Source: a virus
Lineage: Duplodnaviria; Heunggongvirae; Uroviricota; Caudoviricetes
Virus record (IMG/VR): IMGVR_UViG_2861038214_000004
Strand: one strand, 5' to 3'
DNA: 51,754 nucleotides
Shown piece by piece: positions 1-50,424 of this stretch (position 1 is its first letter; every line of letters begins with the position of its first letter). The notes below the pieces were generated by a model. It ran no database searches, had not been told where the DNA came from, and saw nothing but the letters and a program-made list of their open reading frames with translations. The position numbers and the translations under genes are program-made.

Positions 1-477
1 ATGAAACTCATCAGTAACGATCTGCGCGATGGCGATAAATTGCCGCATCGTCATGTCTTTAACGGCATGGGTTACGATGGCGATAATATTTCACCGCATC
101 TGGCGTGGGATGATGTTCCTGCGGGAACGAAAAGTTTTGTTGTCACCTGCTACGACCCGGATGCGCCAACCGGCTCCGGCTGGTGGCACTGGGTAGTTGT
201 TAACTTACCCGCTGATACCCGCGTATTACCGCAAGGGTTTGGCTCTGGTCTGGTAGCAATGCCAGACGGCGTTTTGCAGACGCGTACCGACTTTGGTAAA
301 ACCGGGTACGATGGCGCAGCACCGCCGAAAGGCGAAACTCATCGCTACATTTTTACCGTTCACGCGCTGGATATAGAACGTATTGATGTCGATGAAGGTG
401 CCAGCGGCGCGATGGTCGGGTTTAACGTTCATTTCCACTCTCTGGCAAGCGCCTCGATTACTGCGATGTTTAGTTAA
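1..477 (+). CDS. ybhB: YbhB, PEBP/RKIP-family kinase-inhibitor-like protein; host gene flanking attB-lambda
   Basis: 158-aa ORF recognised as E. coli YbhB from recall; sits beside the lambda att core as expected for the gal-bio attB locus. Confidence 0.85.
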   Translation: MKLISNDLRDGDKLPHRHVFNGMGYDGDNISPHLAWDDVPAGTKSFVVTCYDPDAPTGSGWWHWVVVNLPADTRVLPQGFGSGLVAMPDGVLQTRTDFGKTGYDGAAPPKGETHRYIFTVHALDIERIDVDEGASGAMVGFNVHFHSLASASITAMFS

Positions 478-566
478 TCACTCTGCCAGATGGCGCAATG
501 CCATCTGGTATCACTTAAAGGTATTAAAAACAACTTTTTGTCTTTTTACCTTCCCGTTTCGCTCAA

Positions 567-581
567 GTTAGTATAAAAAAG
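567..581. repeat. attR: att common core on the attR side: TTAGTATAAAAAAGC, reverse complement of lambda core GCTTTTTTATACTAA
   Basis: Exact 15-bp core; host-type sequence (cttgagcgaaacgg in rc) on the ybhB side and phage P-arm sequence on the other; identical core repeated at 50410..50424. Confidence 0.85.
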
Positions 582-725
582 CTGAACGCGAAACAGCAAA
601 AGCCAATAATATCAATGTGTTAAAATACATTTAGTCTAAAAAATAGACTGCATGATACTACAAAACACAACATATCCAGTCACTATGAATCAACTACTTA
701 GATGGTATTAGTGACCTGTAACAGA
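582..725. other. attP P-arm portion of attR with Int arm-type site motif
   Basis: Sequence resembles the reverse complement of the lambda P arm, including CAGTCACTAT arm-type motif; central part diverged. Confidence 0.55.
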
Positions 726-728
726 GCA

Positions 729-768
729 TTAGCGCAAGGTGATTTTTGTCTTCTTGCGCTAATTTTTT
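729..768 (+). terminator. tI/sib-like intrinsic terminator just beyond the P arm
   Basis: 10-bp perfect stem ttagcgcaag / cttgcgctaa with 14-nt loop followed by TTTTTT; position matches where int-derived transcripts run across att into the b region. Confidence 0.55.
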
Positions 769-1138
769 GTCATCAAACCTGTTGTACTCCAGAGAAGCGC
801 AACGCCTCGCAATCCAGTGCAAAGCTTTGCTTGCCCCCACTACGACCTGCATAACCAGTAAGAAGATAGCAGTGATGTCAAACGACGCAGATGTCTGCTT
901 TTCTTTCACGACTCCCCCCCCTAGCATGCATACCTTTCTGTCACAACTGTGAGTTGTTCACATATTCAGGAAAACGCCTCAATTACACCTTTGCGTCGGA
1001 CCACTACTTTAAGTACCAACTGCATTATCCACACTAGTAAGCCCTGCAAGAATTTGTTATCAATAGAGATAGAACAAACACGAGCGAAACCATGATGAAA
1101 AGCATGCGATTTTCTCTCTAAACATGTTAGGAGGTTAG

Positions 1139-1981
1139 ATGGAACGATTGAGAGAACAATACCAAGAAAGAATAAACAGTGTCCTCCTTGACGGCTTTGA
1201 GAAGGAATTATTGGACTCTGCCTTTATTAATCTTTTGACACCGACCCCACTTAGGTTGAACAATTTTGCATATGCTCTACGTGAACTAACAAGGCATGTT
1301 TTACACCGGTTAGCACCAGATGATGAGCTTCAGCAATGCCAATGGTTTTCGCCTGATCAGACATCATCAACAGGAATTACTCGAAAACATCGCATTAAAT
1401 TTGCGATTCAAGGAGGGCTTTCTGATTTCTATGTAACGAAAAAACTTTGCATTGATGAGATAGATAAGGTGTCAAGCGAATTGATTGCTATCATCAATCG
1501 TCTAAGTGGATTTACACATATAGAAGAAGCAACATTCAAAAGCTCAATCGAAAATACTGAAAGAACCGCAGATGAATGTCTTTCAGCAACTCTTGACTTT
1601 GTTAACAAGATTGATGAACTGAGAGCCGAAGTTGCAGATAAGCTCTTCGATGATATCAATGGAGTTCTGATCGACAGAATAAACAGCGAATCGGTTGTTG
1701 AGTTAATGGAAATATCGCCACATCAGTACATTGATGAAATAACAGCAGAAAACATTTCTGTTGTTAAAATTGGCGTAAGCTCTATGGAGATGCATGTCGA
1801 TGGGAGAATAGGAGCGACCTTAATGTACGGCTCAGCATCCGATCGGCGTAAAGGAGATGGAGCTGAAATTCCGGCCTCGTTTCCCGTATACAGTGAAATG
1901 GAAGTTCTATTTAAACAACCATTGGGCAGTGCCATTAACCTAAATCAGTTTAGCGTAGATATTTCGAGCTGGTATGAGTAA
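1139..1981 (+). CDS. hypothetical protein, 280 aa, no recognised family
   Basis: Long ORF preceded by strong RBS (taggaggttag then ATG); AT-rich; between attR and the remnant-rich b region. Confidence 0.6.
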   Translation: MERLREQYQERINSVLLDGFEKELLDSAFINLLTPTPLRLNNFAYALRELTRHVLHRLAPDDELQQCQWFSPDQTSSTGITRKHRIKFAIQGGLSDFYVTKKLCIDEIDKVSSELIAIINRLSGFTHIEEATFKSSIENTERTADECLSATLDFVNKIDELRAEVADKLFDDINGVLIDRINSESVVELMEISPHQYIDEITAENISVVKIGVSSMEMHVDGRIGATLMYGSASDRRKGDGAEIPASFPVYSEMEVLFKQPLGSAINLNQFSVDISSWYE

Positions 1982-2036
1982 GCCTCCTAACAAGACTAAG
2001 CACTGCGAAGATTTTTCCATTACGCCTTTGCCTCCA

Positions 2037-2270
2037 CTACAAAGCCGCGCATGCTAGCGGCGTTATCAACGTCAGTTTCTGGCACAGGGTTGCTGTTGCA
2101 GCCCTGACAAACTTAGAGTTCTCTAACGCGTAATCGAATTCAATGCCCAGATAACGGACTGTGCTTTCCTGTTTCTTATAACCCAACAGAAGTTGGATTG
2201 TAAGTATCCCGCTTAAACGGACCATTTGGTCTTTGTTCCACGGTGACGTGTTCATACTCAAATCTCCCAC
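2037..2270 (-). pseudogene. tyrosine recombinase C-terminal fragment (remnant)
   Basis: Translation contains LTIQLLLGYKKQESTVRYLGIE resembling the C-terminal LLGH...Y box of Xer/integrase-type recombinases; N-terminal catalytic region absent; GTG start lies inside an inverted repeat. Confidence 0.4.
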
Positions 2271-2290
2271 ATTGCAGGAGATTTGAGTAT
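2254..2290. repeat. perfect 14-bp inverted repeat (atactcaaatctcc / ggagatttgagtat) with 9-bp spacer
   Basis: Read directly from sequence; no flanking T-run on either strand, so not a typical intrinsic terminator. Confidence 0.6.
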
Positions 2291-2481
2291 GGTTGTCCCT
2301 TATGAGCGAAGAACGGACTGAGTAATTCAGGCCGTTAGCGACACTATGGCATCATTAGCAACCAACTAGGAGTTGGTAATAGATGAGTTAATTAATTGAT
2401 TAAAAACCGACGATTTTACTAGATTACGGGAAGAAGAAAGGCCGCTGGTACGGCCTCCCAGAGACTGGTCTATTGTTATGC

Positions 2482-2679
2482 TTAGAAACGCTTTTCTATC
2501 TCTTTTTCTCTTTCGTTTATTGCATCGTCAATGATTTTTTTTGCTGAATTAATTTGTGGTGTTTTTTCTGGTAATACATCTTCAAGATCTTTGGCAACTT
2601 TCTTTAATTTATCGATTTCTTTAGTTAAATCAGTTACAGATTTATCCGCTATTGACTTTGTCATTTTTCCATATTCCAT
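2482..2679 (-). CDS. small hypothetical charged/coiled-coil-like protein, 65 aa
   Basis: ORF only; no clear RBS; lies between two recombinase fragments. Confidence 0.25.
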   Translation of the reverse strand: MEYGKMTKSIADKSVTDLTKEIDKLKKVAKDLEDVLPEKTPQINSAKKIIDDAINEREKEIEKRF

Positions 2680-2873
2680 TCAATTTATTTATCAATCAGT
2701 TACCCGTAAACCTTATCATGGATTCCAATTATCGACAGCTGGGATTTTTACTTTCTTGATCTGCCCCCGGCGAATGACATATCCCCATTAACCAATGTCC
2801 GCTCCTAGCACTTAGTAGACATTAATAGATTGTAAGCGTTCCCGTCATGTAGCGGTCACCGATTGGTGACGAA

Positions 2874-3233
2874 TTGAAGCGGATCATTGATGAAAGTCGC
2901 AATAACGTGGCCAGCCCATTTATCGTTCACCAGATCCCGGAACGGCAGGTTAAACGCAGCAAAGAAGTTTCTCATCCCACTCAAGTTGCACCAGACTATT
3001 TGAGTCGGTCGTTTTCAGCTACGCGTGACAAGCTGGGTTTATATGACAAACGGCCGATGGATGAAAGGCCAACCTTTCACGAAATTCGCGCCTTAGCAGC
3101 ACATCTTTTTGATCAGCAGGGCATCGATCCACAAGGACGAATGGCACACAGCGATGCGAAATCAACTAAAATCTACACGCAAAACCATATCGACTGGGTT
3201 GTAGTTCCACATGGAGAAATTAAAGCCAGCTAG
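2874..3233 (+). pseudogene. lambda-Int-family integrase C-terminal fragment
   Basis: C-terminal ~60 aa (PTFHEIRALAAHLF...KIYTQ) align by eye with lambda Int C-terminus (PTFHELRSLSARLY...ASQY); no N-terminal or core-binding domains upstream. Confidence 0.6.
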
Positions 3234-3340
3234 CACCAAGTAAGGCATAGAATTTTATTAACCAAGGAGCATATGACCAGTAATTAATTCTTACCGGAAA
3301 GTTAGCCCTGCTAAAATTAATATTAACAAATAAAAAAATA

Positions 3341-3363
3341 GGGGCAAATATTTATATTTGCCC
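3341..3363. terminator. palindromic hairpin flanked by A/T runs; likely bidirectional terminator ending the NTase-2TM operon
   Basis: gggcaaatat..atatttgccc 10-bp stem; T-run follows on minus strand immediately after the 2TM gene stop. Confidence 0.5.
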
Positions 3364-3374
3364 TCGCAACATAT

Positions 3375-3956
3375 TTATCTTCTTTTCAGTTCCTTGGGAA
3401 GAAAAGCATCTATTTCTTCTTCAGAAAATGTTAAATCTTCTTTGTTTTTTAATGCGTCCTGTGCTTTTTTATAAGCTTCAAATGTTGTACTAGGAGAGCC
3501 TGAATACACTGAATGTAAACTCTCGAGTAACGAATCCCGCTCTGACTGCAATTGCTCGATTGGTTTTTCACCCATTGCTAAGTCTGTAAGCAATGATAAA
3601 TACTTTTCTCGGATTAACCAGATCTCATTTGCAGCCTGCTTATGTTTTTGCGCCAACTCACCAAGGTCATAATCTTTGGTATAAGCGTTAAGAATGAGAA
3701 GCAGTGTTGAAACAACAATCCCAACCCCCGTGCCTACTTCACCCGCGCCGAAAAAAGTTGCTAGAAAGCCTCCAGTAGTTAAGGCGGAGAGAATTATTTG
3801 CCAAAACTTTATAGAAGATAGTCGAGATAGGAGAATGTCTGAGCATTTTTCATGCGTCTTATGTGAGTAAACGACCCGACCATAACACTCTCTGATCTGC
3901 CCTTCTAAAACCCTTCTAGATTCAGGTGTATCCTTAGTCTGGAAATGTTGATCCAT
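3375..3956 (-). CDS. two-transmembrane-helix protein, SLATT-like candidate effector
   Basis: Two adjacent hydrophobic helices (FWQIILSALTTGGFLATFF and VGIVVSTLLLILNAY) followed by a charged helical tail; start chosen at internal ATG with GGGAG RBS (ORF track start 4013); overlaps upstream NTase gene by 23 nt. Confidence 0.6.
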   Translation of the reverse strand: MDQHFQTKDTPESRRVLEGQIRECYGRVVYSHKTHEKCSDILLSRLSSIKFWQIILSALTTGGFLATFFGAGEVGTGVGIVVSTLLLILNAYTKDYDLGELAQKHKQAANEIWLIREKYLSLLTDLAMGEKPIEQLQSERDSLLESLHSVYSGSPSTTFEAYKKAQDALKNKEDLTFSEEEIDAFLPKELKRR

Positions 3957-4815
3957 AAATCTCCCGCCATTTTTGCTTAGCCGACCATTCGCGTTTTGGG
4001 GTCGCCATTTCATGCTCTATAGCTTCGAGTGAAATGTTATAGCACCGTTTTGCTTTATATTGGAAAAGCCCTTTACCATAGACATACTGACCACTTCCTG
4101 GCGCTTTCCAATACTCCTTACTCGTATCTTGATCAGCCATCCATTTGAAGAAATCACGACTCATCAAATCGTAGTAAAGATACGACTTATCTCTATGCGC
4201 CCAATTTTCAATGAATTGATACGCAAGCGTATCAATGAGTAAACCACTTATAGGTACATCCCATTTACGCTTCCAAGCTCTTGCCATTCTACAAAGTTGC
4301 ACCAAATTGTTATTGGTAATGTTATTTCTTAACCTCATTGCAGAAATTTCTGGCTTTGGATTTGTAATCCTCCAACGGCCACCACCGTTCGCATCAGGAA
4401 ATGTGTAACTATCACTAACATTGAGGAAAGCTGGAACGACTTCAAATGTAATTCCATCATTGAACGGTACAAGGATCACTTGACCGTCACCTCTAATACT
4501 AGTGGTAGCATAGGTTTTTTCAATAGATCTCTTAACCGCTTGAAGCAATGCTGACTGCCCATTTCCTAAGTAGCTATTGTATTTTTGATACTCGGAATAT
4601 GGTAGCTGAAAAATCATATCCAGATCGCTCAAGCCTTGCGTAGCTGTGTTCCGACCATATGATCCAACGTAGAGACTATGAGAAGTATCAGAACTGCTAT
4701 CCCAAAAATCCGTATTTAAACGCTTCGTTATATTCCTATATCTAGTTGAAATTGTTCCACCATCTTTTACAGTAAGATTGGAGCAAAATCCGCAAAACCA
4801 CTCAGCTAAACCCAT
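3934..4815 (-). CDS. Pol-beta-superfamily nucleotidyltransferase, SMODS/CD-NTase-like
   Basis: Motif VGSYGRNTATQGLSDLDMIF fits the GS...DxD active site of minimal/SMODS nucleotidyltransferases; ATG at 4815 with AAGGAA RBS (track start 4821 is TTG). Confidence 0.7.
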   Translation of the reverse strand: MGLAEWFCGFCSNLTVKDGGTISTRYRNITKRLNTDFWDSSSDTSHSLYVGSYGRNTATQGLSDLDMIFQLPYSEYQKYNSYLGNGQSALLQAVKRSIEKTYATTSIRGDGQVILVPFNDGITFEVVPAFLNVSDSYTFPDANGGGRWRITNPKPEISAMRLRNNITNNNLVQLCRMARAWKRKWDVPISGLLIDTLAYQFIENWAHRDKSYLYYDLMSRDFFKWMADQDTSKEYWKAPGSGQYVYGKGLFQYKAKRCYNISLEAIEHEMATPKREWSAKQKWREIYGSTFPD

Positions 4816-5108
4816 GCTCAATTCCTTTTCTAAAATCTAATGAAAAATTCAAGGGCGCATGTTCCATGCATCATTGATAACTTTTTTCAGTCAGCTGGAG
4901 TAACATAATTGATACTAACTAGCTGTTTCTTCAAGTGAGTAACCTACTTTAGCATCAAGGTATTATACCTACCAAGCATGGGGAGAAACCACCACTTAAG
5001 CCATTGAAGTATATAGAGCAGATTTTGTTGAAAAAGCACTGTTTGTTTATACATATGAATAGTGCTTTTAACCAGCAATAGCGCGGCTCTCAGCGTTTTA
5101 CAAGCAGT

Positions 5109-5156
5109 GTCATGGGGTGTCGGGGATCGGAAGTTCAAATCCTCTCGTGCCGACCA
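5109..5156 (+). tRNA. partial (pseudo) tRNA-Pro: 3' ~48 nt only, resembling proM; not a functional tRNA gene
   Basis: GTCATGGGGTGTCGGGGaTCGGAaGTTCAAATCCTCTCGTGCCGACCA matches the 3' portion of E. coli proM from recall with 2 mismatches; the 5' half of the tRNA is absent. Confidence 0.7.
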
Positions 5157-5169
5157 AAAAGATTATATA

Positions 5170-5196
5170 AACCAGCCTGTTATTGCTGGTTTTTTA
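5170..5196 (+). terminator. intrinsic terminator following the tRNA fragment
   Basis: aaccagc / gctggtt stem with 8-nt loop followed by TTTTTT. Confidence 0.6.
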
Positions 5197-5675
5197 TGCC
5201 TACCTTCCTGGTAGGGAAGCTATGGGGAATTACTGGGGAATCCCCCCCTTTACCTGCTCCCATTAAACTAACATAGCACGATGTAAGCAACTTCCGCTTC
5301 TGGCACATAGCAGGCCTAGAGACAGTGGCGTAAAGTCATGGAGGATAGGTGGGAGGAGGTAAAAATCCTCTCATACAAAAATACGTAAAATCGATAACAG
5401 CTTGAAATCATTCAATACTCGCACTATCGGAAGTTCACCAGCCAACCGCAGCACGTCCTGCATACGTCGTGTCTGCGGTTTTTCTTTTTCGCTTACATTG
5501 TGTCTGGTTCTTCCGGCCACTCAATATCAGGTGCAGTTGATGTATCAACACGGTTCAGCAACACCCGATACTTTTTCCATGCGGCCAGTAACGCTTTCTC
5601 TTCCTCCGTTGCGATTTCCAGCTCAACAACAGTCTGAACGTACCGGGAACAGCCTCCTTCAGAGCTTGAAGGATA

Positions 5676-8600
5676 TCAATGTTCGCTTCCTGTTAACTGC
5701 CGGACAAGTGCAACCAGTTCGCTTACCTGATTTTCCAGAGTGCTGATCCGGGTGCCTGCTGTTGCCAGATTTTGACGTAGCGTTGTGTTTTCCTCTTCCA
5801 GCGCGGTAACGCGATCATCTGTTTCACGGGCGACCTGAACAAGTAAACCCGTCACGGCGGCGTAGTCAACATTAAGATAGCGCGTTTCTTCGCGTAGCTC
5901 GTTGCCGTCAACGGTCGGGCCTTGCAACTCTTCACCGTAATGGATGAATGAACCAACGGCCTCCGGGATGGCCTCTTCAACTTCCTGGGCTATAACCCCG
6001 GCGCAATGTGCCCCATTCTCCTTGAGCGTGTACGTGTATCCATTAATTTTGCGGATTGCGTCAGTCGCGTTATCGATAATCTCGATATTTTCTTTCAGTC
6101 TGCGGTCTGATGACTGATTCAGTGTGGTGCAGTTAACACTTCCGTTTACAGTAAGGTTTTGCCCGTCTGTTGTTTTTTGCGCATAAAACAGATACGCAGC
6201 AGACGTGCCAACCTCAAAAACGTTTTGTCGAGTACTGGAACCCCACACCCTGATACTAACTGGTAGTTCTGAATTACCTGAATTAAGTAAAGCAAAACGA
6301 TTGCCAGTCCCTGTTTGTTTTCTAATTACTAAATCGGCAGTTGAGTTAACCTCATCTTTGTTGATGGTTAGCGCCTGCGCTGTAGCACCGTTAACAGTGC
6401 CACTTAGTAGTTGAACCGCTCCATCATCGCCATTTAACAGCACTTGAGCGCTGCTTCTGTGGTTTTTCAGGAACAACATTTTGCCTGTGCTTTCTGATGT
6501 GCCTACCGACCACGCCGAATTGGTTCCAGTGCTATCAACACCACGAACGGTACAATTCATGCTGCCATAATCTGACGTACTTCCAAGCACATCAATCCGC
6601 CCGCCACCTAATTTTGATGGAGTCGTCGAGGTTAACGACCTGACGGTTACATCCTGATTCCATCCGGAAACAACAACCTGACTCCACGCTGTCCAGTTTC
6701 CATTAACAACAAAGCGAACGTATATACGTTTTGTGTCGCTGTTAATCAGCGTTTGCATGTTCGCATAATCTGAATCCCTAACCTTACGAGTCGATTCAAC
6801 ACGGAGCAAAAAGTTACCTGTTACGCCGTCAGGCTTGTTGGTGATATTTGCACCACCTGCAGAGGATGGACAAATATAGTATTTAACTGCCCCGGCATCT
6901 GACTTGATGATGGTCAGGTTGTTAAGATTAACCGTCTGGCCGTCAATGTTTTCCGGCTCGATGGCTCCTGCTATCCCGGCACTGAACGTAGCAACGGCTG
7001 AAAACGCTGTCGTACCTTTGAAAGCCAGTTGACCACCAATCGTTAATCCCTTGTCGAGTTTCGCTTGCGTGATCAATTTGCTGTTTTGTTTCTGATCAGG
7101 ACTCTCACCAAAAGCCAGATCCCCATTAGTATCAATTCCAAGATACTTTGGGTTCATGTTGTCTAACTTAAACCCAATGGACACATTTTCAGAAGAACCA
7201 GAACGCGTTAAAACCAACGGCGTGTGCTGTACTCCATAGATGCTTAGCGTAGTTGCCGATGAGTCAGTGTCGGTATTTGCAATCTCAATCGTTCTGCTTT
7301 TAATTTTATACGCTACTGTGAGATCACGGACTTCAACCCTCCCGTCGTGACGAACAACAAGATCCCCTCCTGATGTCCCCCCTGCTGTCTTTGCCCTGAT
7401 GCGAACTTCGCCAAGCGAATCAGTGTTAGGACCAGCATAGATTATGCCGCGCTCTGTGTTATCGCCAGTATAAAACCGCAAAGCGGTGACTCCACTGTCT
7501 GCCCGCAGGAAGACTGACGGTGTACCTTTTTTGATTGTCAAGTCACCGGTCATTGTATCGCCGGTTTTTTTTACCTGCGCATCGTTCGTTACGTTGCCAA
7601 GTCCAACATCCGATTTCGACGGCTTGTTTGCCGAGCCGTATAGCTCATTGACGCTAAAAGTCCCGTTGTTAAGCCGGGCATCGTTGCCGGCATAGATCTT
7701 AATCTTCGCGGTTGAGTAGTCGATATTGATCGCTGACCACGTATCGCCGCACCGCGAGAATATACCAGAACCGTGGCTATAAATGGTCGCCGTGCTTCCG
7801 GTCGGCTTATCACCGCGCCAGAAATGACCACCTTTGTCACGCAGAGCTTTTAAGATCTCTACATCGCTCATCTTGCCGTTTGTTGATATCCCGCTACCGC
7901 CAAGACCGAAAGCGCCTGTAAGCATCGCATTTTCAAGGCCCAAATCTGCTTTAGTCGGCTTGTTTAACTGGTCGTAAATCCTTACAACGGGGCTTTCAAC
8001 ATATCCAGAAGGCGCGGCGGTTTGCTTAACAAATCCGTCTGGGATGTATAATTCTGTGCGTGCCGTCTGCGCCAGCACCGCAACCTTTGCGTCGTTAATA
8101 AACGCACCCTGGAATGCCCAAACCTCAATAAAGCCGTCACCTTTAACCAGGCCGTAACGCATCTGGTTGTTATCGGTCAGCCCGGTTGACCCTAAGCGGC
8201 GTATACTCAGATGACGAGAAACATTATCCGCACTAAGCAAAGAAGGCAGACCGCGCGCCGAGATCTCGATAAAGTCAATGTTTCCGTAAGGGGAGCCGTA
8301 GTTACCAGCGTTAGTAACCATTAGCGTTACATGACTTCTGCTGGTTCCAGGATCGGAAAGTTTCGCGATCTTGATGTAAAGAGACTCACTAGCAGTAACA
8401 ACAGGCCAATCGTATTGCGTCATCGGGCTGACGAGTCCCCCGACCTTGTCGAGATATTCTTTCGCCTTGTTCTCTGACGCTTTAGCGTTGGTTTCGCTGA
8501 CCTTTGCTGCTGACTCACTATTTTTCGCGTTGGTTTCTGATTTTTTGGCTGCTGTCGCGGAATTTGCCGATGCAGTTTGTGAGTCTGCTGCCGCCTGTGC

Positions 8601-9516: not shown

Positions 9517-10116
9517 TCAGAATTTATAACCGACACCCACGATGAAACCGTCAGTGCGCCAGTCGCCACTGCCGGAGCCTTCATAAGCAATATCAATGGC
9601 CACGGATTCGGTCGGGTTAAACTGCACGCCAGCCCCCCACGCCAGAGACGTGTTGCTGTGGCGACCGTCATCACTTCCGGTCAGCACGTCGTGCGTTTTC
9701 CCCTTGTTGTCAGTTACGCGGAGATAATCCCCGGAGAAAGTCGACACACGGCTGTAAGCCACACCCGCCATCGCATACGCGCTGAACCATTCATTCACGC
9801 GCACAGACGGCCCCGCCATTACGCTGAACCAGCGGTTACGAACGGAATCTTCATGCCAGCGGGTATCGCTGTAACGGGTAAGCTGGCGATTCTTGTCTCC
9901 TGCATAGCTGAATGACGTCACCAGCCCCAGTGTGTCCGTAAACTCATAACGGTATTTCACGTTAATCCCGTTCAGATCATCGCTGCCGGGAACGTTGGTC
10001 CGGGCATGAAGATACCCCGCGCTCAGCGTGGACTGATGTTCAGATGCCCATGCAGGCGCACCGGATACGGCCAGACAAATGGCTGCGGACAAAATGGCGG
10101 CATAAAGTTTACGCAT
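9517..10116 (-). CDS. lom: outer membrane protein Lom (Ail/Lom family)
   Basis: 199-aa ORF; C-terminal half near-identical to lambda Lom (…[26 protein letters not shown]), signal peptide present. Confidence 0.9.
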
Positions 10117-10185
10117 AATTACCTCTCGCTTTTCTGCAATAAAAAAGGCACCATTTCTGGTGCCCTTATATGGGTTATAACAACT

Positions 10186-13100
10186 TCAACGAATACTGAT
10201 GCCGGAAGCAGCTTTTTTGGTCACAATCACCGTACAGTCGGTGATATTACCTGCCCACTGATTGCCTTTATGGAAAACCTTAAACTCCAGAGTGACGCTT
10301 CCCCTGCCACTCGGCATATCAATAACCGCACTGTAGCTACCGGGAATGGCCCCTTTAGTTTCTCTGGATGCGATTAATACACCGTTTTTGCGAACTTCAA
10401 AACCATAACCCGTGTATCTTGTACCTCCCGGGTTATTACCACTTCCCGGATCGCTATACGCTATTCCGTTAAAGATAATGGGCGGAATAATGATTTGACG
10501 GTCAAAGTTATGATCATCGCTGATGGTGACTGTAACCGTCCCGTCTGGTGTTTCCGTGTTACCCCACGTACCAGCCTGTTTCGGAAATGATTTGGATACA
10601 GCTTTAACGAAGTCACCTCTGACCTGAGTCGCCTCCAGCATGCCCTTAATCGTACAGTTTTCATTTACCGTGACATTGTTGAGCGTCCCGGCGTTCGCAT
10701 TCACACTGCCACTGATATCCGCATTTTTAGCGGTCAGCTTTCCGTCCGGTGTCAGGGAAAATGCCGGTGGATTTCCACCGCTGGTAATGGTGGGGGCCGT
10801 CAGGCGTTTCAGGAACACGTCGTTCATGAATATCTGATCGCCCTGACCAACAAACATCGGTTTTGTGTTGCCATTCGCAGGATTAACCATCGCAATCCTG
10901 TCCGCCGCCAGCAGCACCTGACTCTGCATGCCGTCAGGGGTGTTCTCAATACCGGCACCAATACCCGCGATATAAAGGCGTCCGTCCTGCATCTGCTGCA
11001 GCTTCACAGCCCACATGCTGTTCAGGTTATTATTTGTATCAACCTGAACCTTCTGTATCTGCTGAATTGCCGCACTCTGGTCTTCCAGTTTCTTATTGAC
11101 GGTCTGCGTGATTTCATTGCTGACATCCGTAATGGACGTCCTGATTTCAGCCAGGTCAGGCGCAAGCTGACCGTTATCAATCTGCGTCCACAGCTCCTGA
11201 GCCAGATGGGTTTTCCCTATCTCGCCTTTGAAAAAATCCAGATAGCCGGATGCATCATCGCTCGCCCGACCGACGGCCTCCACAAATGCCGATTTGCCTA
11301 CGGTGTTCACACTGCGGATATAAAAGTAATAATCATGGCCCGGTTTGATATTGATACTGGCGGCTATCCAGTACAGCGCCGTACCAAGATAGCGGGCTGT
11401 GGTTTCAACCTGCCTGATATCCGCAATCCGCTTTTCCGAGAACCAGAACTCAAACTGTACCGTCGGATCATAAACCGCAAGATGCGGCGTGGCGGTTATC
11501 TGAAAATAGCCCGGCGTCAGCTCAATCCGCGACGGCGCTGCCGGTGCGGCGATCCGGAACAATACCGATGCCGGATCGCCCTGCTGTCCCCATGCATTTA
11601 CCGCCCGGACTGTCAGCCTGTAATTTCCCAGCGCCAGCTGCGTGAAGCGATATGTGGTTTCCGTCGTCCGGGCCGTGCTGACCAGCCGCTCACTGCCGTC
11701 GTCCGCTGCCACGGTCAGGCGAAGCATAAAGCTCACCCCCTTCACCACCTTCGGCGTGTCCCAGCGCGCCAGCACCTGGTATTCCCCGCTGTCTGCGGTG
11801 ACTTCTGCGGTCAGGTGCTGAACTGCTGGCGGCGTGACACCATTCACCGTGCCGCTCTGGTCACCGTCAAAGTGCGCCCCGTTATCCACGATGGCTTCTT
11901 TCTCCGGTACATGCTGCACGGCAGTGATGGCATACGTACCGTCATCGTTCTCACGGATACTCACACAGCGGAACAGGCGCTGACGCAGCGTCGGCAGCTT
12001 CAGCCCCCACACGCTGTACTCGGCAACGCCGTCAGGAACCCGGCTCACTTTCACCTTCACGCCGTCGGTGACGGACTGGACCTCCACGCTCACCGGATTA
12101 CCCTGCCCGTCAACCAGGCTTATCAGCGTGGTGCCGGAGGATGGCAGCGTGATTTCACGGTCGAGCGTCAGTGTCCGCGTCTGGCTGTTCACCGCCAGCA
12201 CGCGCCCGCCGGTGCTGATCCCCGCATAGTCATCATCACAGATTTCAATGACATCACCTGGTACATGGCGAAGCCCTTCGGCACCCACGCTGAAGTCCAC
12301 GGTCTGCGTTTCCAGCAGTTCTGTTTTAATCAGCCACAGCCCGGCGCGGTGCGCCTGCCCCCGACTGGTACAGCCAAACGCATCCATCTTCGTGACGTTA
12401 CGACCGTAACGGGCAATGGCCTGCGAGTCCTCCACAAGCTCTGTTGCCGTCTCCCAGCCGTTATCCGGGTCAATCCAGTTCACTTCAACGGCATTATGGC
12501 GGTCTTTCAGGGCGCTGAAGCTGTAGCGGAATGGTGCGCCATCATCCGGCATCACCACATTACTGCGGTTATAGGTCCACACCTTATCCGACGGTCGGTC
12601 CTGCACGAACGTCAGCGTCTGCCCGTTCCATACCGGCATACAGCGCATCGCCGAGCAGAAATCACTGAGCACATCCCACGCCTTGCGCTGTGTGGTCAGG
12701 TACGCATTACAGGTGATGCGCGGCTCCGTGCCGCCAAAGCCGTCCGGCACCGACTGGTCGCAATTCTGGCCGATGACATACAGCGCCCATTTATCCACAT
12801 CTGCCGCACCAAGACGTTTCCCCATGCCGTAGCGCGGGTGGGTCAGCATATCCCACAGACACCAGGCCATGTTGTTGCTGTATGCCGGTTTAAACGTTCC
12901 GTCCCAGATACCGCTGTATTGCCGCGTCTGCGGGTTATAATTCGACGGCACCTGCAGAATACGCCCGCGCAGATGATAATTACGGCTCACCTGCTGGCTG
13001 CCGAACTGCTCCGAATCCACCTGCACGCCGACCAGTGCCGTGTTCGGGTAGCACTGTTTCACATCGATGATTTCGGTGTATGACGACCAGAGCGTTTTGT

Positions 13101-13683
13101 TCTGCAGCTGGTCTGTGGTGCTGTCCGGCGTCATTCTGCGCATCCGGATATTAAACGGGCGCGGCGGCAGGTTATCCACCACCACCGAGGCCAGATACTG
13201 CGAGGTGGTTTTGCCCTTAATGGTGATGTCTTTTTCCGTCACCCAGCCACCGTTACGTTGTATCTGAACCAGCAGGCGGACTTCCGATGGATTCCGGTCC
13301 CCCTTTGAGGTGGTTTCCACCAGTGCCTGCACGCCGAAGGTAAAACGCAGACGGTCAATGTTTGCCGACGTGATGGTCCGGGTGATCGGCGTGTCATATT
13401 TCACTTCTGTACCGAGCACCGTCTCGGAGCCGGAGGATTCAAATCCCTCCGGCGGTGTCTGCTCCTGCTCACCGGCCCGGAACACCACCGTGACGCCGGA
13501 TATATTGGTATTCCCCTCACTGTCCAGCACCGGCGTACTGTTCAGCAGCACGCTTTTTAATCCATCCACCGGACCTTCAACCGGCCCTTCGCTGATGGCA
13601 TCGATCACACTCAGCAGCTGCGTGGACTTCAGGTTGTCCTTCGCTTCGCGCGGGGTATGCCCCTTACTGCTGCCTTTACCCAT
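10186..13683 (-). CDS. J: tail tip / host-specificity protein J; C-terminal receptor-binding region differs from lambda J
   Basis: 1165-aa ORF, first ~800 aa near-identical to lambda J from recall; last ~160 aa unlike the lambda LamB-binding domain. Confidence 0.9.
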
Positions 13684-13743
13684 TCGTCACGCTCCATAAA
13701 CGACAAAACCGCCCGCAGGCGGTTTCACATAAAATGTTTTGCA

Positions 13744-14391
13744 TCAGCGACCAATCACCACAACCTGACCACCATCCCCTTCGTCTGCCGTGCTGATCTC
13801 CTGAGAAACCACACGTGATCCCACGCGCATTTCCCCGTACAGAACAGGCAGAACATTGCCCTGGGCAACCATGTTATCCAGTGACGAGAAATACGTGTTC
13901 TGTTTGCCGTTATCTGTACTGGCTGCCGTGGGCGTCCTGGCTTTCGGTGCCAGCATCTGCGCCACACCACCCAGGATCATACTGGCCCCTGCTGCATACA
14001 GACCCGATACAGCCGCGGCCCCCAGCCAGCCAACAGGGTTCCACCATGCCACCGCAATCAGCGCCGCACCCAGCACCGCCTGAAACACACCGCCACTTTT
14101 GGCACCCGCCAGACGCGGAACGACGTGGATCACGGCACCATTTGCCAGCGGTTCATTAAGACGGGCAGATAATTCATTTTCGCCTGCATCACGCCCGGAA
14201 ATGCGCACCTGATACCAGCCCTCATTCAGTTTCTGGCGAAACGACGGAAGCTGTGTGGCCAGCGCCCGGATGGCTTCAGCCCCCGTTTTCACACGAAGGT
14301 CGATGCGGCGGCCAAATCGTTGTAAATCCCCGTAAAGGCAGATGCGTGCCATGCCCGGTGACGCCAGAGGGAGTGTGTGCGTCGCTGCCAT
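13744..14391 (-). CDS. I: tail assembly protein I
   Basis: Matches lambda I from recall; 103-nt overlap with K as in lambda. Confidence 0.9.
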   Translation of the reverse strand: MAATHTLPLASPGMARICLYGDLQRFGRRIDLRVKTGAEAIRALATQLPSFRQKLNEGWYQVRISGRDAGENELSARLNEPLANGAVIHVVPRLAGAKSGGVFQAVLGAALIAVAWWNPVGWLGAAAVSGLYAAGASMILGGVAQMLAPKARTPTAASTDNGKQNTYFSSLDNMVAQGNVLPVLYGEMRVGSRVVSQEISTADEGDGGQVVVIGR

Positions 14392-15032
14392 TTGTCGGTA
14401 TACCTCTCTCGTTTGCTCAGTTGTTCAGGAATATGGTGCAGCAGCTCGCCGTCACCACAGTAAATGGCGGCATGATTCGGCACCGATGAACCAAAGCAGC
14501 ACAGCAGCACGTCGCCAGGCTGCGCCTCTGTCAGTGCGACACGGTAAAAACCAGTCGCCTCCATATTGTCAAGATAGAGATTCTGACCGTGACGCCACCA
14601 GTCATCCCCGCGATGAAAATCCGGCATCTCAATCCCCGCCAGATGATAAGCATCCCGGAACAGCGTGTAACAGTCCGTCACCCCGTGCTCAAAACGCCGC
14701 CCGGTGAGATGCGGCACACAGCGGAACTTATGAATCGTCCCCCGGCAGACCAGCCACCACGGCAAATCACTCTGCACCTGCAGCCGCCGGTCGGCCTCAC
14801 TCAGCCAGGGCAGACCACCGGGGTGGCTGTGGACCAGTGCCACAATCTCACCCTGCATTTCTGCCTGCAGCCAGTCCTCCGGCGACATACGGAAATACGC
14901 CTCCGGCTCACCGGAGATATTCACGCAGGGGAAATATCTTTCCCCCTCCGGCGTGCTTACCACGAAGCCGCACGACTCCGCTGGCGCACATCGCCGGGCG
15001 TGCGCCAGAATCGCTGATTCTGTCTGTGTCAT
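14289..15032 (-). CDS. K: tail assembly protein K (MPN/JAB and NlpC/P60-like domains)
   Basis: Lambda K-like sequence with HSHPGG motif; full ORF 247 aa, classical lambda K annotation is shorter so the start is uncertain. Confidence 0.8.
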   Translation of the reverse strand: MTQTESAILAHARRCAPAESCGFVVSTPEGERYFPCVNISGEPEAYFRMSPEDWLQAEMQGEIVALVHSHPGGLPWLSEADRRLQVQSDLPWWLVCRGTIHKFRCVPHLTGRRFEHGVTDCYTLFRDAYHLAGIEMPDFHRGDDWWRHGQNLYLDNMEATGFYRVALTEAQPGDVLLCCFGSSVPNHAAIYCGDGELLHHIPEQLSKRERYTDKWQRRTHSLWRHRAWHASAFTGIYNDLAAASTFV

Positions 15033-15037
15033 GGGAT

Positions 15038-15736
15038 TTACTGCGAAAGTTTGTTAATGGAAAGGAAGCCGCCAAAGTTGCCGACGTTATTGCGAAACTT
15101 ACAGCCACTCAGGCATTTGCTGCATTTATCCTTCGTGATATCGGACGTTGGCTGGTCATATTCATCCGCGACCGCCGGACCGTGATAACCGCACTCATCG
15201 CCGCGATAGGTCCAGGTGCAGGTGTTGGCCAGCATGATACGTCCCGGAAAAACAGCGCCATCTGTTTCCGTCGGCGTGGACAGTACAAAGGAGGCACTCA
15301 CCGCGCTCAGTTCGCTGCACTGCTCGATGCGCCAGCGGCTGATCACCTCCTGCTCCGGATCGGCGTCACTGTTTCCGTTGACGAAGTTCACCGCATCCAG
15401 AAAACGGGCGTAAACCTTACGCCGGACCACCGTTCCGCCGACCAGACTCTGCAGATCTTCCGCCATCCCGGTGACCATACCGTACAGGTTAGAAACCGTC
15501 AGCGTGGGGCGCGTACTGGTGCCTTTGCCATTCAGTTCAAAACCACTCCCCTGAATGGGATACGGCTGATACTGTCGCCCCTGCCAGGTGACCGGCTCAC
15601 CTTTTTCGTTCTGCTCATTACAGAAAAAATAACGTTCTCCACCGACCTCTGTCAGGTCGATTTCCCAGAGCACCACGCTGGCCGACTGCTCCGCACGGGT
15701 GCATTCATTCAGTGTTTCCTGCCGGATATCCTGCAT
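15038..15736 (-). CDS. L: minor tail protein L
   Basis: 232 aa, matches lambda L. Confidence 0.9.
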   Translation of the reverse strand: MQDIRQETLNECTRAEQSASVVLWEIDLTEVGGERYFFCNEQNEKGEPVTWQGRQYQPYPIQGSGFELNGKGTSTRPTLTVSNLYGMVTGMAEDLQSLVGGTVVRRKVYARFLDAVNFVNGNSDADPEQEVISRWRIEQCSELSAVSASFVLSTPTETDGAVFPGRIMLANTCTWTYRGDECGYHGPAVADEYDQPTSDITKDKCSKCLSGCKFRNNVGNFGGFLSINKLSQ

Positions 15737-16065
15737 CAGTTCACCACCTGTTCAAACTCTGCGCTGAACTCAACACGCAGCATACTGACCCGCGACGACC
15801 ATTTTGCGCAGGTCACCTTTATCTGCCGCCACTCATAAGGCGGCGTCCACAGAAAGGCTTTCCAGCCCCCGTGCTCAGCCAGAAACGACTCAAGCGCCGT
15901 GGCCTCCCAACGGGGAACAGAAAGCGTCACGCTGTACGTTTTCAGGTCGGCATTCAGCCCGGCAGGCGCTCGCTGAGAATAGCCATCACCAAAGCGCACC
16001 TTTCTTACGGAAGGGGCCGAAGCCACATCCATACCGGGTTTCACTTTCCAGCGGAAGGTTTTCAT
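15736..16065 (-). CDS. M: minor tail protein M
   Basis: 109 aa, matches lambda M. Confidence 0.9.
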   Translation of the reverse strand: MKTFRWKVKPGMDVASAPSVRKVRFGDGYSQRAPAGLNADLKTYSVTLSVPRWEATALESFLAEHGGWKAFLWTPPYEWRQIKVTCAKWSSRVSMLRVEFSAEFEQVVN

Positions 16066-18623
16066 CGTCCACCTCCGGAGAACAGACCACCATCGCGCAT
16101 CTGCCCGGTCACAACATCCATTGCCGCCTTACGGGCTACGTCATAAACCGCCTTCAGCGCCTGTGGCCCTATCTGACCGTTCGTGCCGTCGTTGTTAATC
16201 ACCACATGGTTATTCTGCTCAAACGTCCCGGACGCCTGCGACCGGCTGTCTGCCATGCTGCCCGGTGTACCGACATAACCGCCGGTGGCATAGCCGCGCA
16301 TCAGCCGGTAAAGATTCCCCACGCCAATCCGGCTGGTTGCCTCCTTCGTGAAGACAAATTCACCACGGTGAACAATCCCCGCTGGCTCATATTTGCCGCC
16401 GGTTCCCGTAAATCCTCCGGTTGCAAAATGGAATTTCGCCGCAGCGGCCTGAATGGCTGTACCGCCTGACGCGGATGCGCCGCCACCAACAGCCCCGCCA
16501 ATGGCGCTGCCGATACTCCCGACAATCCCCACCATTGCCTGCTTAAGCAGAATTTCTGTCATCATGGACAGCACGGAGCGGGTGAAGCTGCGCCAGTTCT
16601 GTTCACTGCCGGTCAGCATCGCCGCCATATTCTGCGCAATACCATCAAAGGTCTGCGTGGCTGCACTTTTAACCTGCGACATACTGTCCGTGGCGCTCTC
16701 TTCCCACTCACTCCAGCCGGACCTGAGGCCTGCCATCCAGCTCCCGCGAAGCTGGTCTTCAGCCGCCCAGGTCTTTTTCTGCTCTGACATGACGTTATTC
16801 AGCGCCAGCGGATTATCGCCATACTGTTCCTTCAGGCGCTGTTCTGTGGCTTCCCGCGCTGCCTGCCGGTCAGTCAGCCCCCGGTTTTTCGCCTCAATGG
16901 CTGCCCGTTTTGCCCGTTGTTGCTGTGCGAACTTATCCGCCTGCTGCGCCAGCGCATTCAGGTGCTCCTGATACGTAACCTTGTCGCCAAGTGCAGCCAG
17001 CTGGCGTTTGTACTCCAGCGTCTCATCTTTATGCGCCAGCAGGGATTTCTCCTGTGCGGACAGCTGGCGACGTTGTGCCGCCTCCTCCAGTACCGCGAAC
17101 TGACTTTCTGCCTTCCACAAATCCCGGCGCTGCTGGCTGATTTTCTCATTCGCTCCGGCATGCTTCTCCAGCGTCCGGAGTTCTGTCTGAAGCATCAGCA
17201 GGGCAGCATGAGCACTGTCTTCCTGACGATCGCCCGCAGACACCTTCACGCCGGACTGTTTCGGCTTTTTCAGCGTCGCTTCATAATCCTTTTTCGCCGC
17301 CGCCATCAGCGTGTTGTAATCTGCCTGCAGAATTTTCCCGTCTTTCAGTGCCTTGTTCAGTTCTTCCTGACGGGCGGTATATTTCTCCAGCGGCGTCTGC
17401 AGCCGTTCGTAAGCCTTCTGCGCCTCTTCGGTATATTTCAGCCGTGACGCTTCGGTATCGCTCTGCTGCTGCGCATTTTTGTCCTGTTGAGTCTGCTGCT
17501 CAGCCTTCTTTCTCGCTGCTTCAAGCGCAAGACGGGCCTTTTCACGATCATCCCAGTAACGCGCCCGCGCTTCATCGTTAACAAAATAATCATCCTTGCG
17601 CAGATTCCAGATGTCGTCTGCTTTCTTAAACGCAGCCTCTGCCTTAATCAGCATCTCCTGCGCGGTATCAGGACGACCAATATCCAGCACCGCATCCCAC
17701 ATGGATTTGAATGCCCGCGCTGTCCTGTCTGCCCAGGTCTCCAGCGTGCCCATGTTCTCTTTCAGGCGGCGGGTCTGGTCATCAAACCCTTTCGTTGCGG
17801 CCTCGTTCGCCGCCTGCAATGCCCCGGCCTCATCGCCGGAACGCTGCAACTGAGCAACATACGCAATCTGCTCCGCCGTCACGTTATGGAACTGGCGTGC
17901 CATCGCTGTCAGCCCTGACGTCGGGTCTGTGGTCAGCTTCCCGAAGGCTTCAGCGACCTTGTCCACCTCCACGCCGGATGCAGAGGAGAAACGCGCCACA
18001 CTCTGGCTGATGGACGCAATCTGAGCCTCACCGCTTACCCCCGCCTTAACCAGTGCGCTGAGTGACTCGCTGGTCTGGTCAAACGTCAGCCCTGCCGCCT
18101 GCCCGGCTCTGGACAGGACCAGCATGCGATCTGCCGTCAGCCCCGACTGATTGCCGGAAAGGACCAGCGTTTTGTTGAAATCGGACAGGGTTGAGTTGCC
18201 CTGATACCAGGCATACGCCAGCGCACCGGTCGCCACCGCCAGCGAGGTGGCCCCGACCATCGGCAGGGTGAGCGCACCGGCAAGCCCCCTGAACATGGGG
18301 ATCATCCCGCCGAAGGAGTCCTTCACCTGACCACCCTGTTGCAGCAGGATCAGCCACGGACTTTGCCCGCCTGCAAGCTGCGTGGCCACGTCAGTGAACT
18401 GCGCAGGCAGCATACGCATGGCAGCTTTATACTGCCCGACGGAAATCCCCGCTTTCTGTGCAGCCAGTGCCTGTCGGCTCAGCGACTGTTCAACGACTGC
18501 CGCTGTTTTTTTCGCATCACTTTCCGTACCGGAAAAATGACGCCTGACTCTGGCCATCTGCTCGTCAAATCTGGCCGCATCCAGACTCAAATCAACGACC
18601 AGATCGCCTACCGGTTCAGCCAT
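16062..18623 (-). CDS. H: tail tape measure protein H
   Basis: 853 aa, same length as and matching lambda H. Confidence 0.9.
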   Translation of the reverse strand: MAEPVGDLVVDLSLDAARFDEQMARVRRHFSGTESDAKKTAAVVEQSLSRQALAAQKAGISVGQYKAAMRMLPAQFTDVATQLAGGQSPWLILLQQGGQVKDSFGGMIPMFRGLAGALTLPMVGATSLAVATGALAYAWYQGNSTLSDFNKTLVLSGNQSGLTADRMLVLSRAGQAAGLTFDQTSESLSALVKAGVSGEAQIASISQSVARFSSASGVEVDKVAEAFGKLTTDPTSGLTAMARQFHNVTAEQIAYVAQLQRSGDEAGALQAANEAATKGFDDQTRRLKENMGTLETWADRTARAFKSMWDAVLDIGRPDTAQEMLIKAEAAFKKADDIWNLRKDDYFVNDEARARYWDDREKARLALEAARKKAEQQTQQDKNAQQQSDTEASRLKYTEEAQKAYERLQTPLEKYTARQEELNKALKDGKILQADYNTLMAAAKKDYEATLKKPKQSGVKVSAGDRQEDSAHAALLMLQTELRTLEKHAGANEKISQQRRDLWKAESQFAVLEEAAQRRQLSAQEKSLLAHKDETLEYKRQLAALGDKVTYQEHLNALAQQADKFAQQQRAKRAAIEAKNRGLTDRQAAREATEQRLKEQYGDNPLALNNVMSEQKKTWAAEDQLRGSWMAGLRSGWSEWEESATDSMSQVKSAATQTFDGIAQNMAAMLTGSEQNWRSFTRSVLSMMTEILLKQAMVGIVGSIGSAIGGAVGGGASASGGTAIQAAAAKFHFATGGFTGTGGKYEPAGIVHRGEFVFTKEATSRIGVGNLYRLMRGYATGGYVGTPGSMADSRSQASGTFEQNNHVVINNDGTNGQIGPQALKAVYDVARKAAMDVVTGQMRDGGLFSGGGR

Positions 18624-24747: not shown

Positions 24748-28428
<3,681 letters not shown>

Positions 28429-49069: not shown

Positions 49070-49288
49070 ATGTACTTGACACTTCAGGAGTGGAACGCAC
49101 GCCAACGACGCCCAAGAAGCCTTGAAACAGTTCGTCGATGGGTACGCGAGTGCAGGATATTCCCTCCTCCGGTTAAGGATGGAAGAGAGTATCTGTTCCA
49201 CGAATCAGCGGTAAAGGTTGACTTAAATCGACCAGTAACAGGTAGCCTTTTGAAGAGGATCAGAAATGGGAAGAAGGCGAAGTCATGA
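49070..49288 (+). CDS. xis: excisionase Xis
   Basis: 72 aa, matches lambda Xis. Confidence 0.95.
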   Translation: MYLTLQEWNARQRRPRSLETVRRWVRECRIFPPPVKDGREYLFHESAVKVDLNRPVTGSLLKRIRNGKKAKS

Positions 49289-50409: not shown

Positions 50410-50424
50410 TTAGTATAAAAAAGC
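50410..50424. repeat. attL: att common core on the attL side (TTAGTATAAAAAAGC)
   Basis: Exact 15-bp core identical to 567..581, with P'-arm on the int side and host sequence on the ybhC side. Confidence 0.85.

Follow-up and report, generated by a model that had tools for sequence, protein, structure and literature searches.

The locus described here raises the question of what an AT-rich gene, unrelated to those of lambda, is doing as the first gene inside the attR end of a lambda-like Escherichia coli prophage. The DNA is the IMG/VR virus record IMGVR_UViG_2861038214_000004, analyzed over its full length of 51,754 nucleotides (nt), which we call the window; all coordinates are positions in this window, and those of relatives are marked as belonging to their own locus. 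A preliminary description of the sequence had presented the gene, an open reading frame (ORF) of 280 amino acids (aa), as an orphan with a strong ribosome-binding site and as a candidate moron with a possible toxin or defense role, and had pointed to an R-x4-H string of the kind found in HEPN nucleases. We found that the ORF protein is a member of the pP_pnuc family (PF18165 plus PF18166 in Pfam, Aga_Nuclease in PADLOC). The explanation that we favor, with a probability of roughly 55%, is that this stand-alone pP_pnuc member travels as a mobile single-gene cassette of the integron type and would function as a single-protein effector against phages or other mobile elements. The ORF is thus probably a small defense gene, belonging to a known family and not new in kind.

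1139 to 1981, plus strand: the ORF, 280 aa, ATG start, pP_pnuc family member (Pfam, PADLOC and the ratio of nonsynonymous to synonymous substitution rates, dN/dS)

The ORF is a real, intact gene under purifying selection. The reading frame, with an ATG start, was found where it had been placed, and the AT richness was also confirmed, with 40% GC against ~50% in the flanks and values of 38 to 41% in all hosts. Comparison with six homologues of 80 to 93% nucleotide identity gave dN/dS values of 0.08 to 0.23, which, together with the expectation values of its two Pfam domains (2e-39 and 2e-25), places the ORF beyond chance. The E. coli protein is labeled hypothetical in RefSeq (WP_039023233.1), identical DNA occurs in 34 out of 5,426 complete E. 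coli genomes, and 1,558 index blocks of a public assembly collection contain exactly this protein. The statement that the gene is unrelated to those of lambda stands, because a tblastn search of 50,697 phage records (INPHARED) gave no homologue; among 2.9 million IMG/VR contigs, just 2 loci carried a pP_pnuc relative.

Family membership was clear over the whole protein. PF18165 (pP_pnuc_1) covers aa 15 to 149 (E = 2e-39, 134.6 bits against a cut-off of 26.3, profile positions 3 to 131 of 133) and PF18166 (pP_pnuc_2) covers aa 159 to 279 (E = 2e-25, 89.5 bits against a cut-off of 25, profile positions 2 to 122 of 122), both named "predicted pPIWI-associating nuclease" in Pfam. The PADLOC model PDLC02413 (Aga_Nuclease) matched with E = 1.3e-72 across 267 of 267 profile positions and was the only one among the validated defense models of that collection to do so, the rest giving no match. 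PHROG assigned the protein to a family of unknown function, the NCBIfam search was without meaningful match, and a sequence search of the PDB retrieved no relative. A large protein search returned 182 relatives, and the matches listed all have both domains, most at ~280 aa, while an exhaustive profile search gave 1,278 representative clusters (50% identity), almost every one a stand-alone protein of 270 to 310 aa, and 399 of these clusters had E <= 1e-30. With two Pfam domains, a full-length PADLOC model, a PHROG match, and more than 1,200 representative relatives, the gene can no longer be called an orphan. It resembles the rest of pP_pnuc/Aga_Nuclease in carrying both domains end to end, in its length, and in having all the family-invariant residues (see below), and differs in being prophage borne within an attC-type cassette, with no Argonaute/PIWI partner here or in the related loci examined.

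Three other proteins that could be meant by a similar name were rejected. bAgaN is the nuclease of the long-B prokaryotic Argonaute (pAgo) systems known as BPAN, a PD-(D/E)XK or RecB-like DNase with a restriction endonuclease fold (PMC10620215). It shares the generic label "Argonaute-associated nuclease" with the ORF protein, which combines a helical domain with an alpha+beta roll and does not have that fold. The nuclease of the pPIWI-RE triad (restriction endonuclease fold, with DinG) is another protein in another operon. Agap-HEPN of AmAgo is a pAgo-linked HEPN RNase, a larger protein with catalytic R262/H267 for which the authors report no BLAST homologues beyond a six-member group (PMC11162769); the residue positions differ from those of the ORF protein, and the group is tiny.

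The ribosome-binding site is part of the unit in which the gene travels. AGGAGG is present at 1129 to 1134, 4 nt ahead of the ATG, as had been noted, but it belongs to a conserved 9-bp perfect inverted repeat, GTTAGGAGG ... CCTCCTAAC, that flanks the ORF (1126 to 1134 and 1983 to 1991), since the CCTCCTAAC directly past the stop codon is the exact reverse complement of the cassette start, G/TTAGGAGG (the slash marks the boundary). The left copy is an R'-type core (GTTRRRY-like), and the right copy opens a proposed attC-like hairpin. The attC sites of integrons have R'' and R' cores (RYYYAAC and GTTRRRY), an unpaired spacer, bulged bases, and a variable loop. From these features we infer that the ORF and its 3' element are built like an integron gene cassette that carries an attC site.

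1126 to 1134, plus strand: left arm of the cassette inverted repeat, GTTAGGAGG, reverse complement of 1983 to 1991, containing AGGAGG (1129 to 1134)
~1127 to 2062, plus strand: putative integron-type cassette, one ORF plus an attC-like site, G/TT boundaries on both sides
1983 to 2068, plus strand: attC-like element, made of R'' CCTCCTAAC (1983 to 1991), unpaired spacer, stem, variable loop, L' arm, and R' GTTATCA (2062 to 2068)

The 86 nt past the stop codon can fold as a hairpin whose stem has two single-base bulges. The R'' core, TCCTAAC, agrees with the consensus at 6 of 7 positions, and the cassette start, G/TTAGGA, is its reverse complement; the downstream R' core reads GTTATCA in the window, and the Photobacterium copy has the canonical GTTAAAC. 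When this region was aligned among five genera, it was 87% identical and diverged directly past GCGGCG. The proposed hairpin pairs in 84% of the alignment cells, against 21 to 43% with slid partners, and includes one compensatory T-A/C-G change among the five closely related sequences; the free-energy z-score of the attC region was unremarkable.

Evidence for a discrete mobile unit came from its limits in other genera (blastn, window coordinates):

1125 to 2062: Oleiphilus copy, 92.6% nucleotide identity
1126 to 2072: Photobacterium copy, 87.6% nucleotide identity
1124 to 2065: Pseudoalteromonas copy, 88.7% nucleotide identity
998 to 2083: Lelliottia prophage copy, 89.1% nucleotide identity
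952 to 1985: Pectobacterium copy, 90.8% nucleotide identity

These limits are sharp and repeated. The cassette unit is found in Oleiphilus, Photobacterium, Pseudoalteromonas, and Lelliottia at 87 to 93% identity, the marine copies all start at 1124 to 1126, and the flanks of the three marine copies are unrelated. In two further genomes, more distant homologues likewise have a start complementary to the sequence that follows the stop codon. The Enterobacterales copies have ~130 to 175 bp of upstream flank in common, so the unit that moved within this order was slightly larger. In Oleiphilus the gene is part of a same-strand array and comes after the third of its 50-nt attC-like repeats. This array, in a metagenome-assembled genome (6911 to 10924, own locus), contains small ORFs and 50-nt repeats starting at 8536, 9621, and 9942, together with a cyclase of a cyclic oligonucleotide-based antiphage signaling system (CBASS) and a DUF6602 effector, within an island where Xre/ParS-type antitoxins and an arm-type integrase are also encoded. 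The arrangement resembles an attC array that lacks an integron integrase, the nearby recombinase being an arm-type phage integrase and not IntI. In Pseudoalteromonas an IS110-family transposase is located immediately upstream of the gene.

The Lelliottia nimipressuralis copy (10001 to 10843, own locus) belongs to another lambdoid prophage. There it lies in the nin region, which is transcribed from pR, with the O/P replication genes on one side and the RusA and Q-antiterminator genes on the other; this is a second and independent prophage hotspot.

Integron cassettes have been reported to encode phage defense (BRiCs; bioRxiv 10.1101/2024.07.02.601719). The unit described here is similar to these in being a compact single-gene element that starts in a GTTRRRY-like core and has a putative attC-like hairpin right past the stop codon, in keeping the same boundaries in unrelated genomes, and in its defense-rich neighborhoods.

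An AlphaFold model built with a 100-sequence alignment had a pLDDT (predicted local distance difference test) of 93.7 and consists of a helical N-terminal domain (aa 1 to 135), a 48-residue helix (137 to 184), and a four-stranded antiparallel sheet (195 to 273), the long helix being packed on the sheet to form the C-terminal domain. A Foldseek search of the PDB gave nothing under E = 0.018, and its weak matches (ARC6/PARC6, NTF2-like, cystatin-like) were to the C-terminal helix-on-sheet half. Conservation was counted in an alignment of 251 diverse members of the family (identities as low as 25%), with the following positions standing out:

1280 to 1297, plus strand: codons of R48-E-L-T-R-H53 (RELTRH), aa 48 to 53
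1514 to 1519, plus strand: codons of T126-H127
1721 to 1723, plus strand: codon of H195, at the start of the C-terminal beta-sheet
1829 to 1843, plus strand: codons of the G231-S232-x-S234-D235 loop, C-terminal domain

R48 and H127 are invariant (251 of 251 each), followed by W69 (99%), R82 (98%), T126 and H195 (94% each), and the loop residues G231, S232, and D235 (96 to 99%), with S234 at 74%. All the family-invariant residues, that is, R48, W69, R82, T126-H127, H195, G231-S232, and D235 (94 to 100% conserved), are found in the ORF protein. Both well-conserved histidines follow a threonine or serine (T126-H127 and T/S194-H195). H127 is a candidate catalytic histidine, and if the protein is a nuclease, its center would more likely be formed by R48 and H127 with contributions from the C-terminal domain.

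The same counts bear on the HEPN proposal. The string RELTRH is indeed there, and in an HEPN RNase toxin R48-x4-H53 would form, at the interface of a dimer, an RNase site that needs no metal, and the protein would behave like AbiD/F, RnlA, or LsoA, stopping translation upon infection. Consistent with this are the invariance of R48, an H53 conserved at >=90% among relatives of >=36% identity, the helical N-terminal domain of the model, and the existence of a pAgo-linked HEPN RNase, Agap (PMC11162769). Across the whole alignment, however, H53 is kept in just 193 of 251 members (77%) and is N, I, R, E, or T in the other 58 (23%), while H127 is present in all. The position of the motif is also among the points against it. 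The HEPN motif is situated at the start of the last helix in a four-helix core, whereas RELTRH is mid-helix in the third helix of the model. The profile and structure searches that had been suggested for this question pointed the same way, with no HEPN-clan match in Pfam at E <= 10, no HEPN-type match in NCBIfam or PADLOC either (thresholds of E <= 10 or E <= 1), and nothing significant in Foldseek. When the N-terminal domain was searched alone, the matches (Roquin, 5.5; AbiA, 5.3) appeared amid unrelated helix bundles, and those to HEPN proteins were no better than those to generic bundles. The ORF family stands apart from AbiD/F, RnlA, LsoA, and Agap-HEPN in having no conserved motif histidine, no HEPN profile, and an atypical motif position and topology. 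An HEPN assignment is not supported, because H53 is replaced in 58 of 251 members with R48 and H127 invariant and no HEPN profile matches, and we regard an HEPN RNase toxin as improbable.

The names given by Pfam and PADLOC imply that some family members neighbor pAgo genes, and the ORF might then be a stranded Argonaute accessory, working only with a pAgo encoded elsewhere or being the remnant of a decaying pAgo operon. To evaluate the genomic context, we took 62 loci from one-genome-per-species contigs and clustered all the neighbors. No gene was conserved beside the family member across the 62 loci, local synteny being found just in a subset from Flavobacteria/Sphingobacteria (Bacteroidota), and there was no small conserved antitoxin-like partner either. 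A PIWI domain was absent from the 10 tightly adjacent and 39 large neighbors of these loci, as well as from the Pfam-annotated contexts of eight further homologues. Altogether, neither the window nor >70 related loci yielded an Argonaute or PIWI gene, and the window contained no Argonaute-sized ORF besides the tail genes. There is no evidence in the contexts examined for the Argonaute association after which the family is named. A stranded accessory is also difficult to reconcile with a gene that moves alone as a cassette and is under purifying selection, so we consider this origin highly improbable.

What the neighborhoods do contain is defense genes. CBASS adjoins the ORF in E. coli and is found upstream of the gene in Oleiphilus, and within 3.5 kb of the family member a subset of the 62 loci has Gabija (2 loci), type I restriction-modification methyltransferases (3), or MADS (3). 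Further restriction-modification genes are near the Flavobacterium member, and MmeI-like, UvrD, and AAA_23/DUF3732 genes are among those beside relatives. Distant members (27 to 33% identity) were found on 57 plasmids, including E. coli and Klebsiella plasmids of ~95 kb. A single-protein defense effector is favored because of these neighbors and because integron cassettes are reported to encode phage defense. A partnership specific to CBASS was rejected, the link being constant only within the prophage module of E. coli; most of the remaining close copies lack it.

Several individual loci deserve mention. In Pectobacterium parvum an ABC-3C/Lamassu-like system of three genes, Mrr_cat-CTD3, a small protein, and an AAA_23/SMC_N ATPase (10885 to 16544, own locus), is directly convergent with a 93%-identical homologue. 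On Agrobacterium radiobacter pTi_CFBP4442 (4034 to 5691, own locus) the family member, which has both Pfam domains, overlaps by 4 nt a Lit/Peptidase_U49 phage-exclusion gene, with an S8 peptidase plus ATPase, DUF2971, and RES genes nearby; the same pairing with Lit occurs on an Aminobacter plasmid and may represent a two-gene variant of the system. On the E. coli plasmid p655Rt_p0111 (4953 to 5888, own locus) a 311-aa member of 29% identity is located between a Dam-family methyltransferase and baseplate genes. This plasmid and 33 other ~95-kb E. coli and Klebsiella plasmids are non-mobilizable, with the look of phage-plasmids in the one examined.

The gene could also be cargo with no part in defense, either an integron cassette that is neutral or selfish or else an enzyme with an unrelated task, hitchhiking into the prophage. 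Most integron cassettes are of unknown function (bioRxiv 10.1101/2024.07.02.601719), no validated defense model matches other than the Argonaute-accessory one, and one relative is found in a copper/arsenic resistance island. Against this stand strong purifying selection across hosts, repeated closeness to bona fide defense systems, translational coupling to a Lit-family protease, and the retention of intact copies in E. coli (34 complete genomes) and in public assemblies (1,558 index blocks). We consider this explanation quite unlikely.

The prophage setting was established from the following features:

1 to 477, plus strand: host gene ybhB, coding for a PEBP-family kinase inhibitor (Pfam PBP; identical region so annotated in RefSeq)
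564 to 954, no strand assigned: lambda-like P arm plus tI/sib region, 89.9% identity to lambda 27350 to 27742
568 to 582, minus strand: attR copy of the lambda attachment (att) core GCTTTTTTATACTAA, exact match
731 to 768, plus strand: tI/sib-type hairpin AGCGCAAG ... CTTGCGCT followed by T6, read from the sequence inside the lambda-homologous segment
2107 to 2202, minus strand: integrase pseudogene fragment, between the ORF and CBASS
2482 to 2679, minus strand: 65-aa ORF, Lys/Glu rich, probably coiled-coil, without a Pfam match
2835 to 3234, plus strand: integrase pseudogene fragment, between the ORF and CBASS
3375 to 3956, minus strand: SLATT_4 two-transmembrane CBASS effector (PADLOC PDLC00696, E = 1e-84)
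3934 to 4815, minus strand: SMODS CBASS cyclase (PADLOC PDLC00786, E = 7e-144), overlapping the SLATT_4 gene
49266 to 50336, plus strand: lambda-type Int, with ybhC coming after
50410 to 50424: attL copy of the lambda att core GCTTTTTTATACTAA, exact match

The ybhB gene belongs to the chromosome that flanks att-lambda on its bio side, and the core GCTTTTTTATACTAA occurs twice in the window as an exact match (0 expected by chance). With ybhB, the two att cores, Int, and ybhC, the window is a complete lambda-like E. coli prophage at att-lambda. Lambda homology (attP plus tI/sib) ends at ~954, and the foreign DNA begins exactly there. The ORF is the first gene within the prophage at attR, as had been described, with the tI/sib-type hairpin upstream on the same strand. 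It runs inward, toward the b-region cargo, that is, toward a complete type I CBASS (3375 to 4815), with which it is convergent, and the tail-fiber genes beyond. The module formed by the ORF, the 65-aa ORF, SLATT, and SMODS was located at the b-region end of lambdoid prophages at >=4 different chromosomal sites, and the linkage between the ORF and CBASS was constant in this E. coli module (10 of 10 places).

The idea of a candidate moron with a possible defense role is supported by context only, with foreign DNA of 40% GC beginning at 954, CBASS beside the gene, and defense neighbors in relatives. The insertion relative to related phages and the deviant composition (40% against ~50% GC) are those of a moron, and foreign-GC DNA between attP/tI and the tail-fiber genes is what the locus has in common with lambda b-region accessory genes. 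A classical moron, however, has its own promoter and terminator, whereas the ORF is without evident ones and its insertion unit resembles an integron cassette. The upstream flank (952 to 1126, plus strand), which the copies of Pectobacterium (from 952) and Lelliottia (from 998) share, contains a conserved block, GAATTTGTTATCAATA, and only weak promoter-like matches; the scan gave no more than an 8/12 sigma-70 match at 938 to 966 and the conserved TGtTATCAA block. No intrinsic terminator was found in a scan of the plus strand. A nine-codon mini-ORF, MMKSMRFSL (1092 to 1121, plus strand), ends 8 nt before the Shine-Dalgarno sequence, within flank common to the enterobacterial copies only, and is not kept in the marine ones.

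Position and orientation bear on when the gene could be expressed. The ORF has replaced the lambda ea genes and has their transcriptional polarity, and in the lysogen it is separated from pL. Since int is on the plus strand, excision places the ORF directly downstream of int-attP-tI. In the lysogen the ORF would need its own weak promoter; after excision, N-antiterminated transcripts from pL would also read it, int-attP-tI being on the pL strand. It could be a lytic-phase phage gene comparable to lambda ea47/ea31/ea59, expressed from pL only once excision joins int-attP to the ORF. Instead of protecting the lysogen, it would then serve the phage in host takeover, in competition with other phages that infect the same cell, or in counter-defense (e.g., by silencing the CBASS of the prophage itself). 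Its location just past attP and tI/sib, with int on the same strand, agrees with this, as do the failure to find a canonical promoter upstream, the constant link to CBASS in the E. coli module, the pR-transcribed copy of Lelliottia, and the distant members on phage-plasmids. Yet the family is mostly chromosomal or island borne, with the 2 loci in 2.9 million IMG/VR contigs and 0 in 50,697 phage genomes already mentioned, phage genes are not near most relatives, and most close copies are not beside CBASS. We judge a lytic-phase role unlikely.

Several observations weigh against a stand-alone defense gene on an integron-type cassette. On the side of the cassette, the R'' and R' cores match the consensus at only 6 of 7 and 4 of 7 positions, the attC structure was derived from five closely related sequences, and, unlike BRiCs, the ORF lies outside an integron, the window having neither an integron integrase nor attI, only lambda Int and phage-integrase fragments. 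As for function, the searched literature contained no experimental work on any pP_pnuc family member, the "nuclease" label is a Pfam prediction only, and one Pseudomonas relative is located in a copper/arsenic metal-resistance island and not in a defense island. With regard to expression, promoter scans gave no convincing sigma-70 promoter upstream of the ORF, and its orientation past int-att, as in the lambda early b-region genes, fits a lytic-phase role equally well.

If the stand-alone defense gene is nevertheless correct, the sequence of events might be as follows. A promoter-poor single-gene cassette would have entered a lambda-like prophage at its b-region accessory hotspot, next to a type I CBASS, and an infection cue would trigger putative nucleic-acid cutting by the ORF protein. 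Judging from conservation, the active center would be arranged around the invariant R48 and H127, probably with C-terminal H195, S232, and D235, and the C-terminal domain may be a sensor or gate; neither a canonical HEPN R-x4-H dyad nor an Argonaute partner would be needed. A wider proposal, which we put forward only tentatively, is that the "Argonaute-associated nuclease" family is an autonomous single-protein immune effector, with a fold and center that have no solved relative, spread as an integron cassette from marine Gammaproteobacteria into temperate enterobacterial phages. Its center would then combine the invariant arginine with two Thr-His motifs over the helical domain and the alpha+beta roll, and integron recombination would be a supply line for prophage defense hotspots.

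In practical terms, the orphan label is removed and a plausible but unsupported HEPN call is corrected. The family was named for an association with Argonaute, yet it stands alone in every context examined and does so in defense neighborhoods; it is therefore a cheap candidate single-gene defense system, with R48, H127, H195, and D235, against H53, as mutational targets. That an apparent strong ribosome-binding site doubles as a recombination core is, together with the cassette, the most interesting new fact, and the cassette architecture suggests a route for integron-borne genes into prophage accessory hotspots. The understanding of prophage defense islands is left unchanged, with one well-delimited member added.

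Some minor features were found between the cassette and the tail-fiber genes. The two integrase fragments suggest repeated insertions at the b-region hotspot, and one E. coli genome has an IS66 element inserted at ~2104 to 2115. The 65-aa ORF is part of the E. coli module and is absent beside the homologues of other genera (Pectobacterium, Oleiphilus, and others). An Rfam scan of positions 1 to 6000 gave as its sole match, far from the ORF and just downstream of a tail-fiber gene, a sub-threshold IS009 at 5536 to 5736 on the minus strand (81.5 bits, below the gathering score of 117; E = 7e-18).

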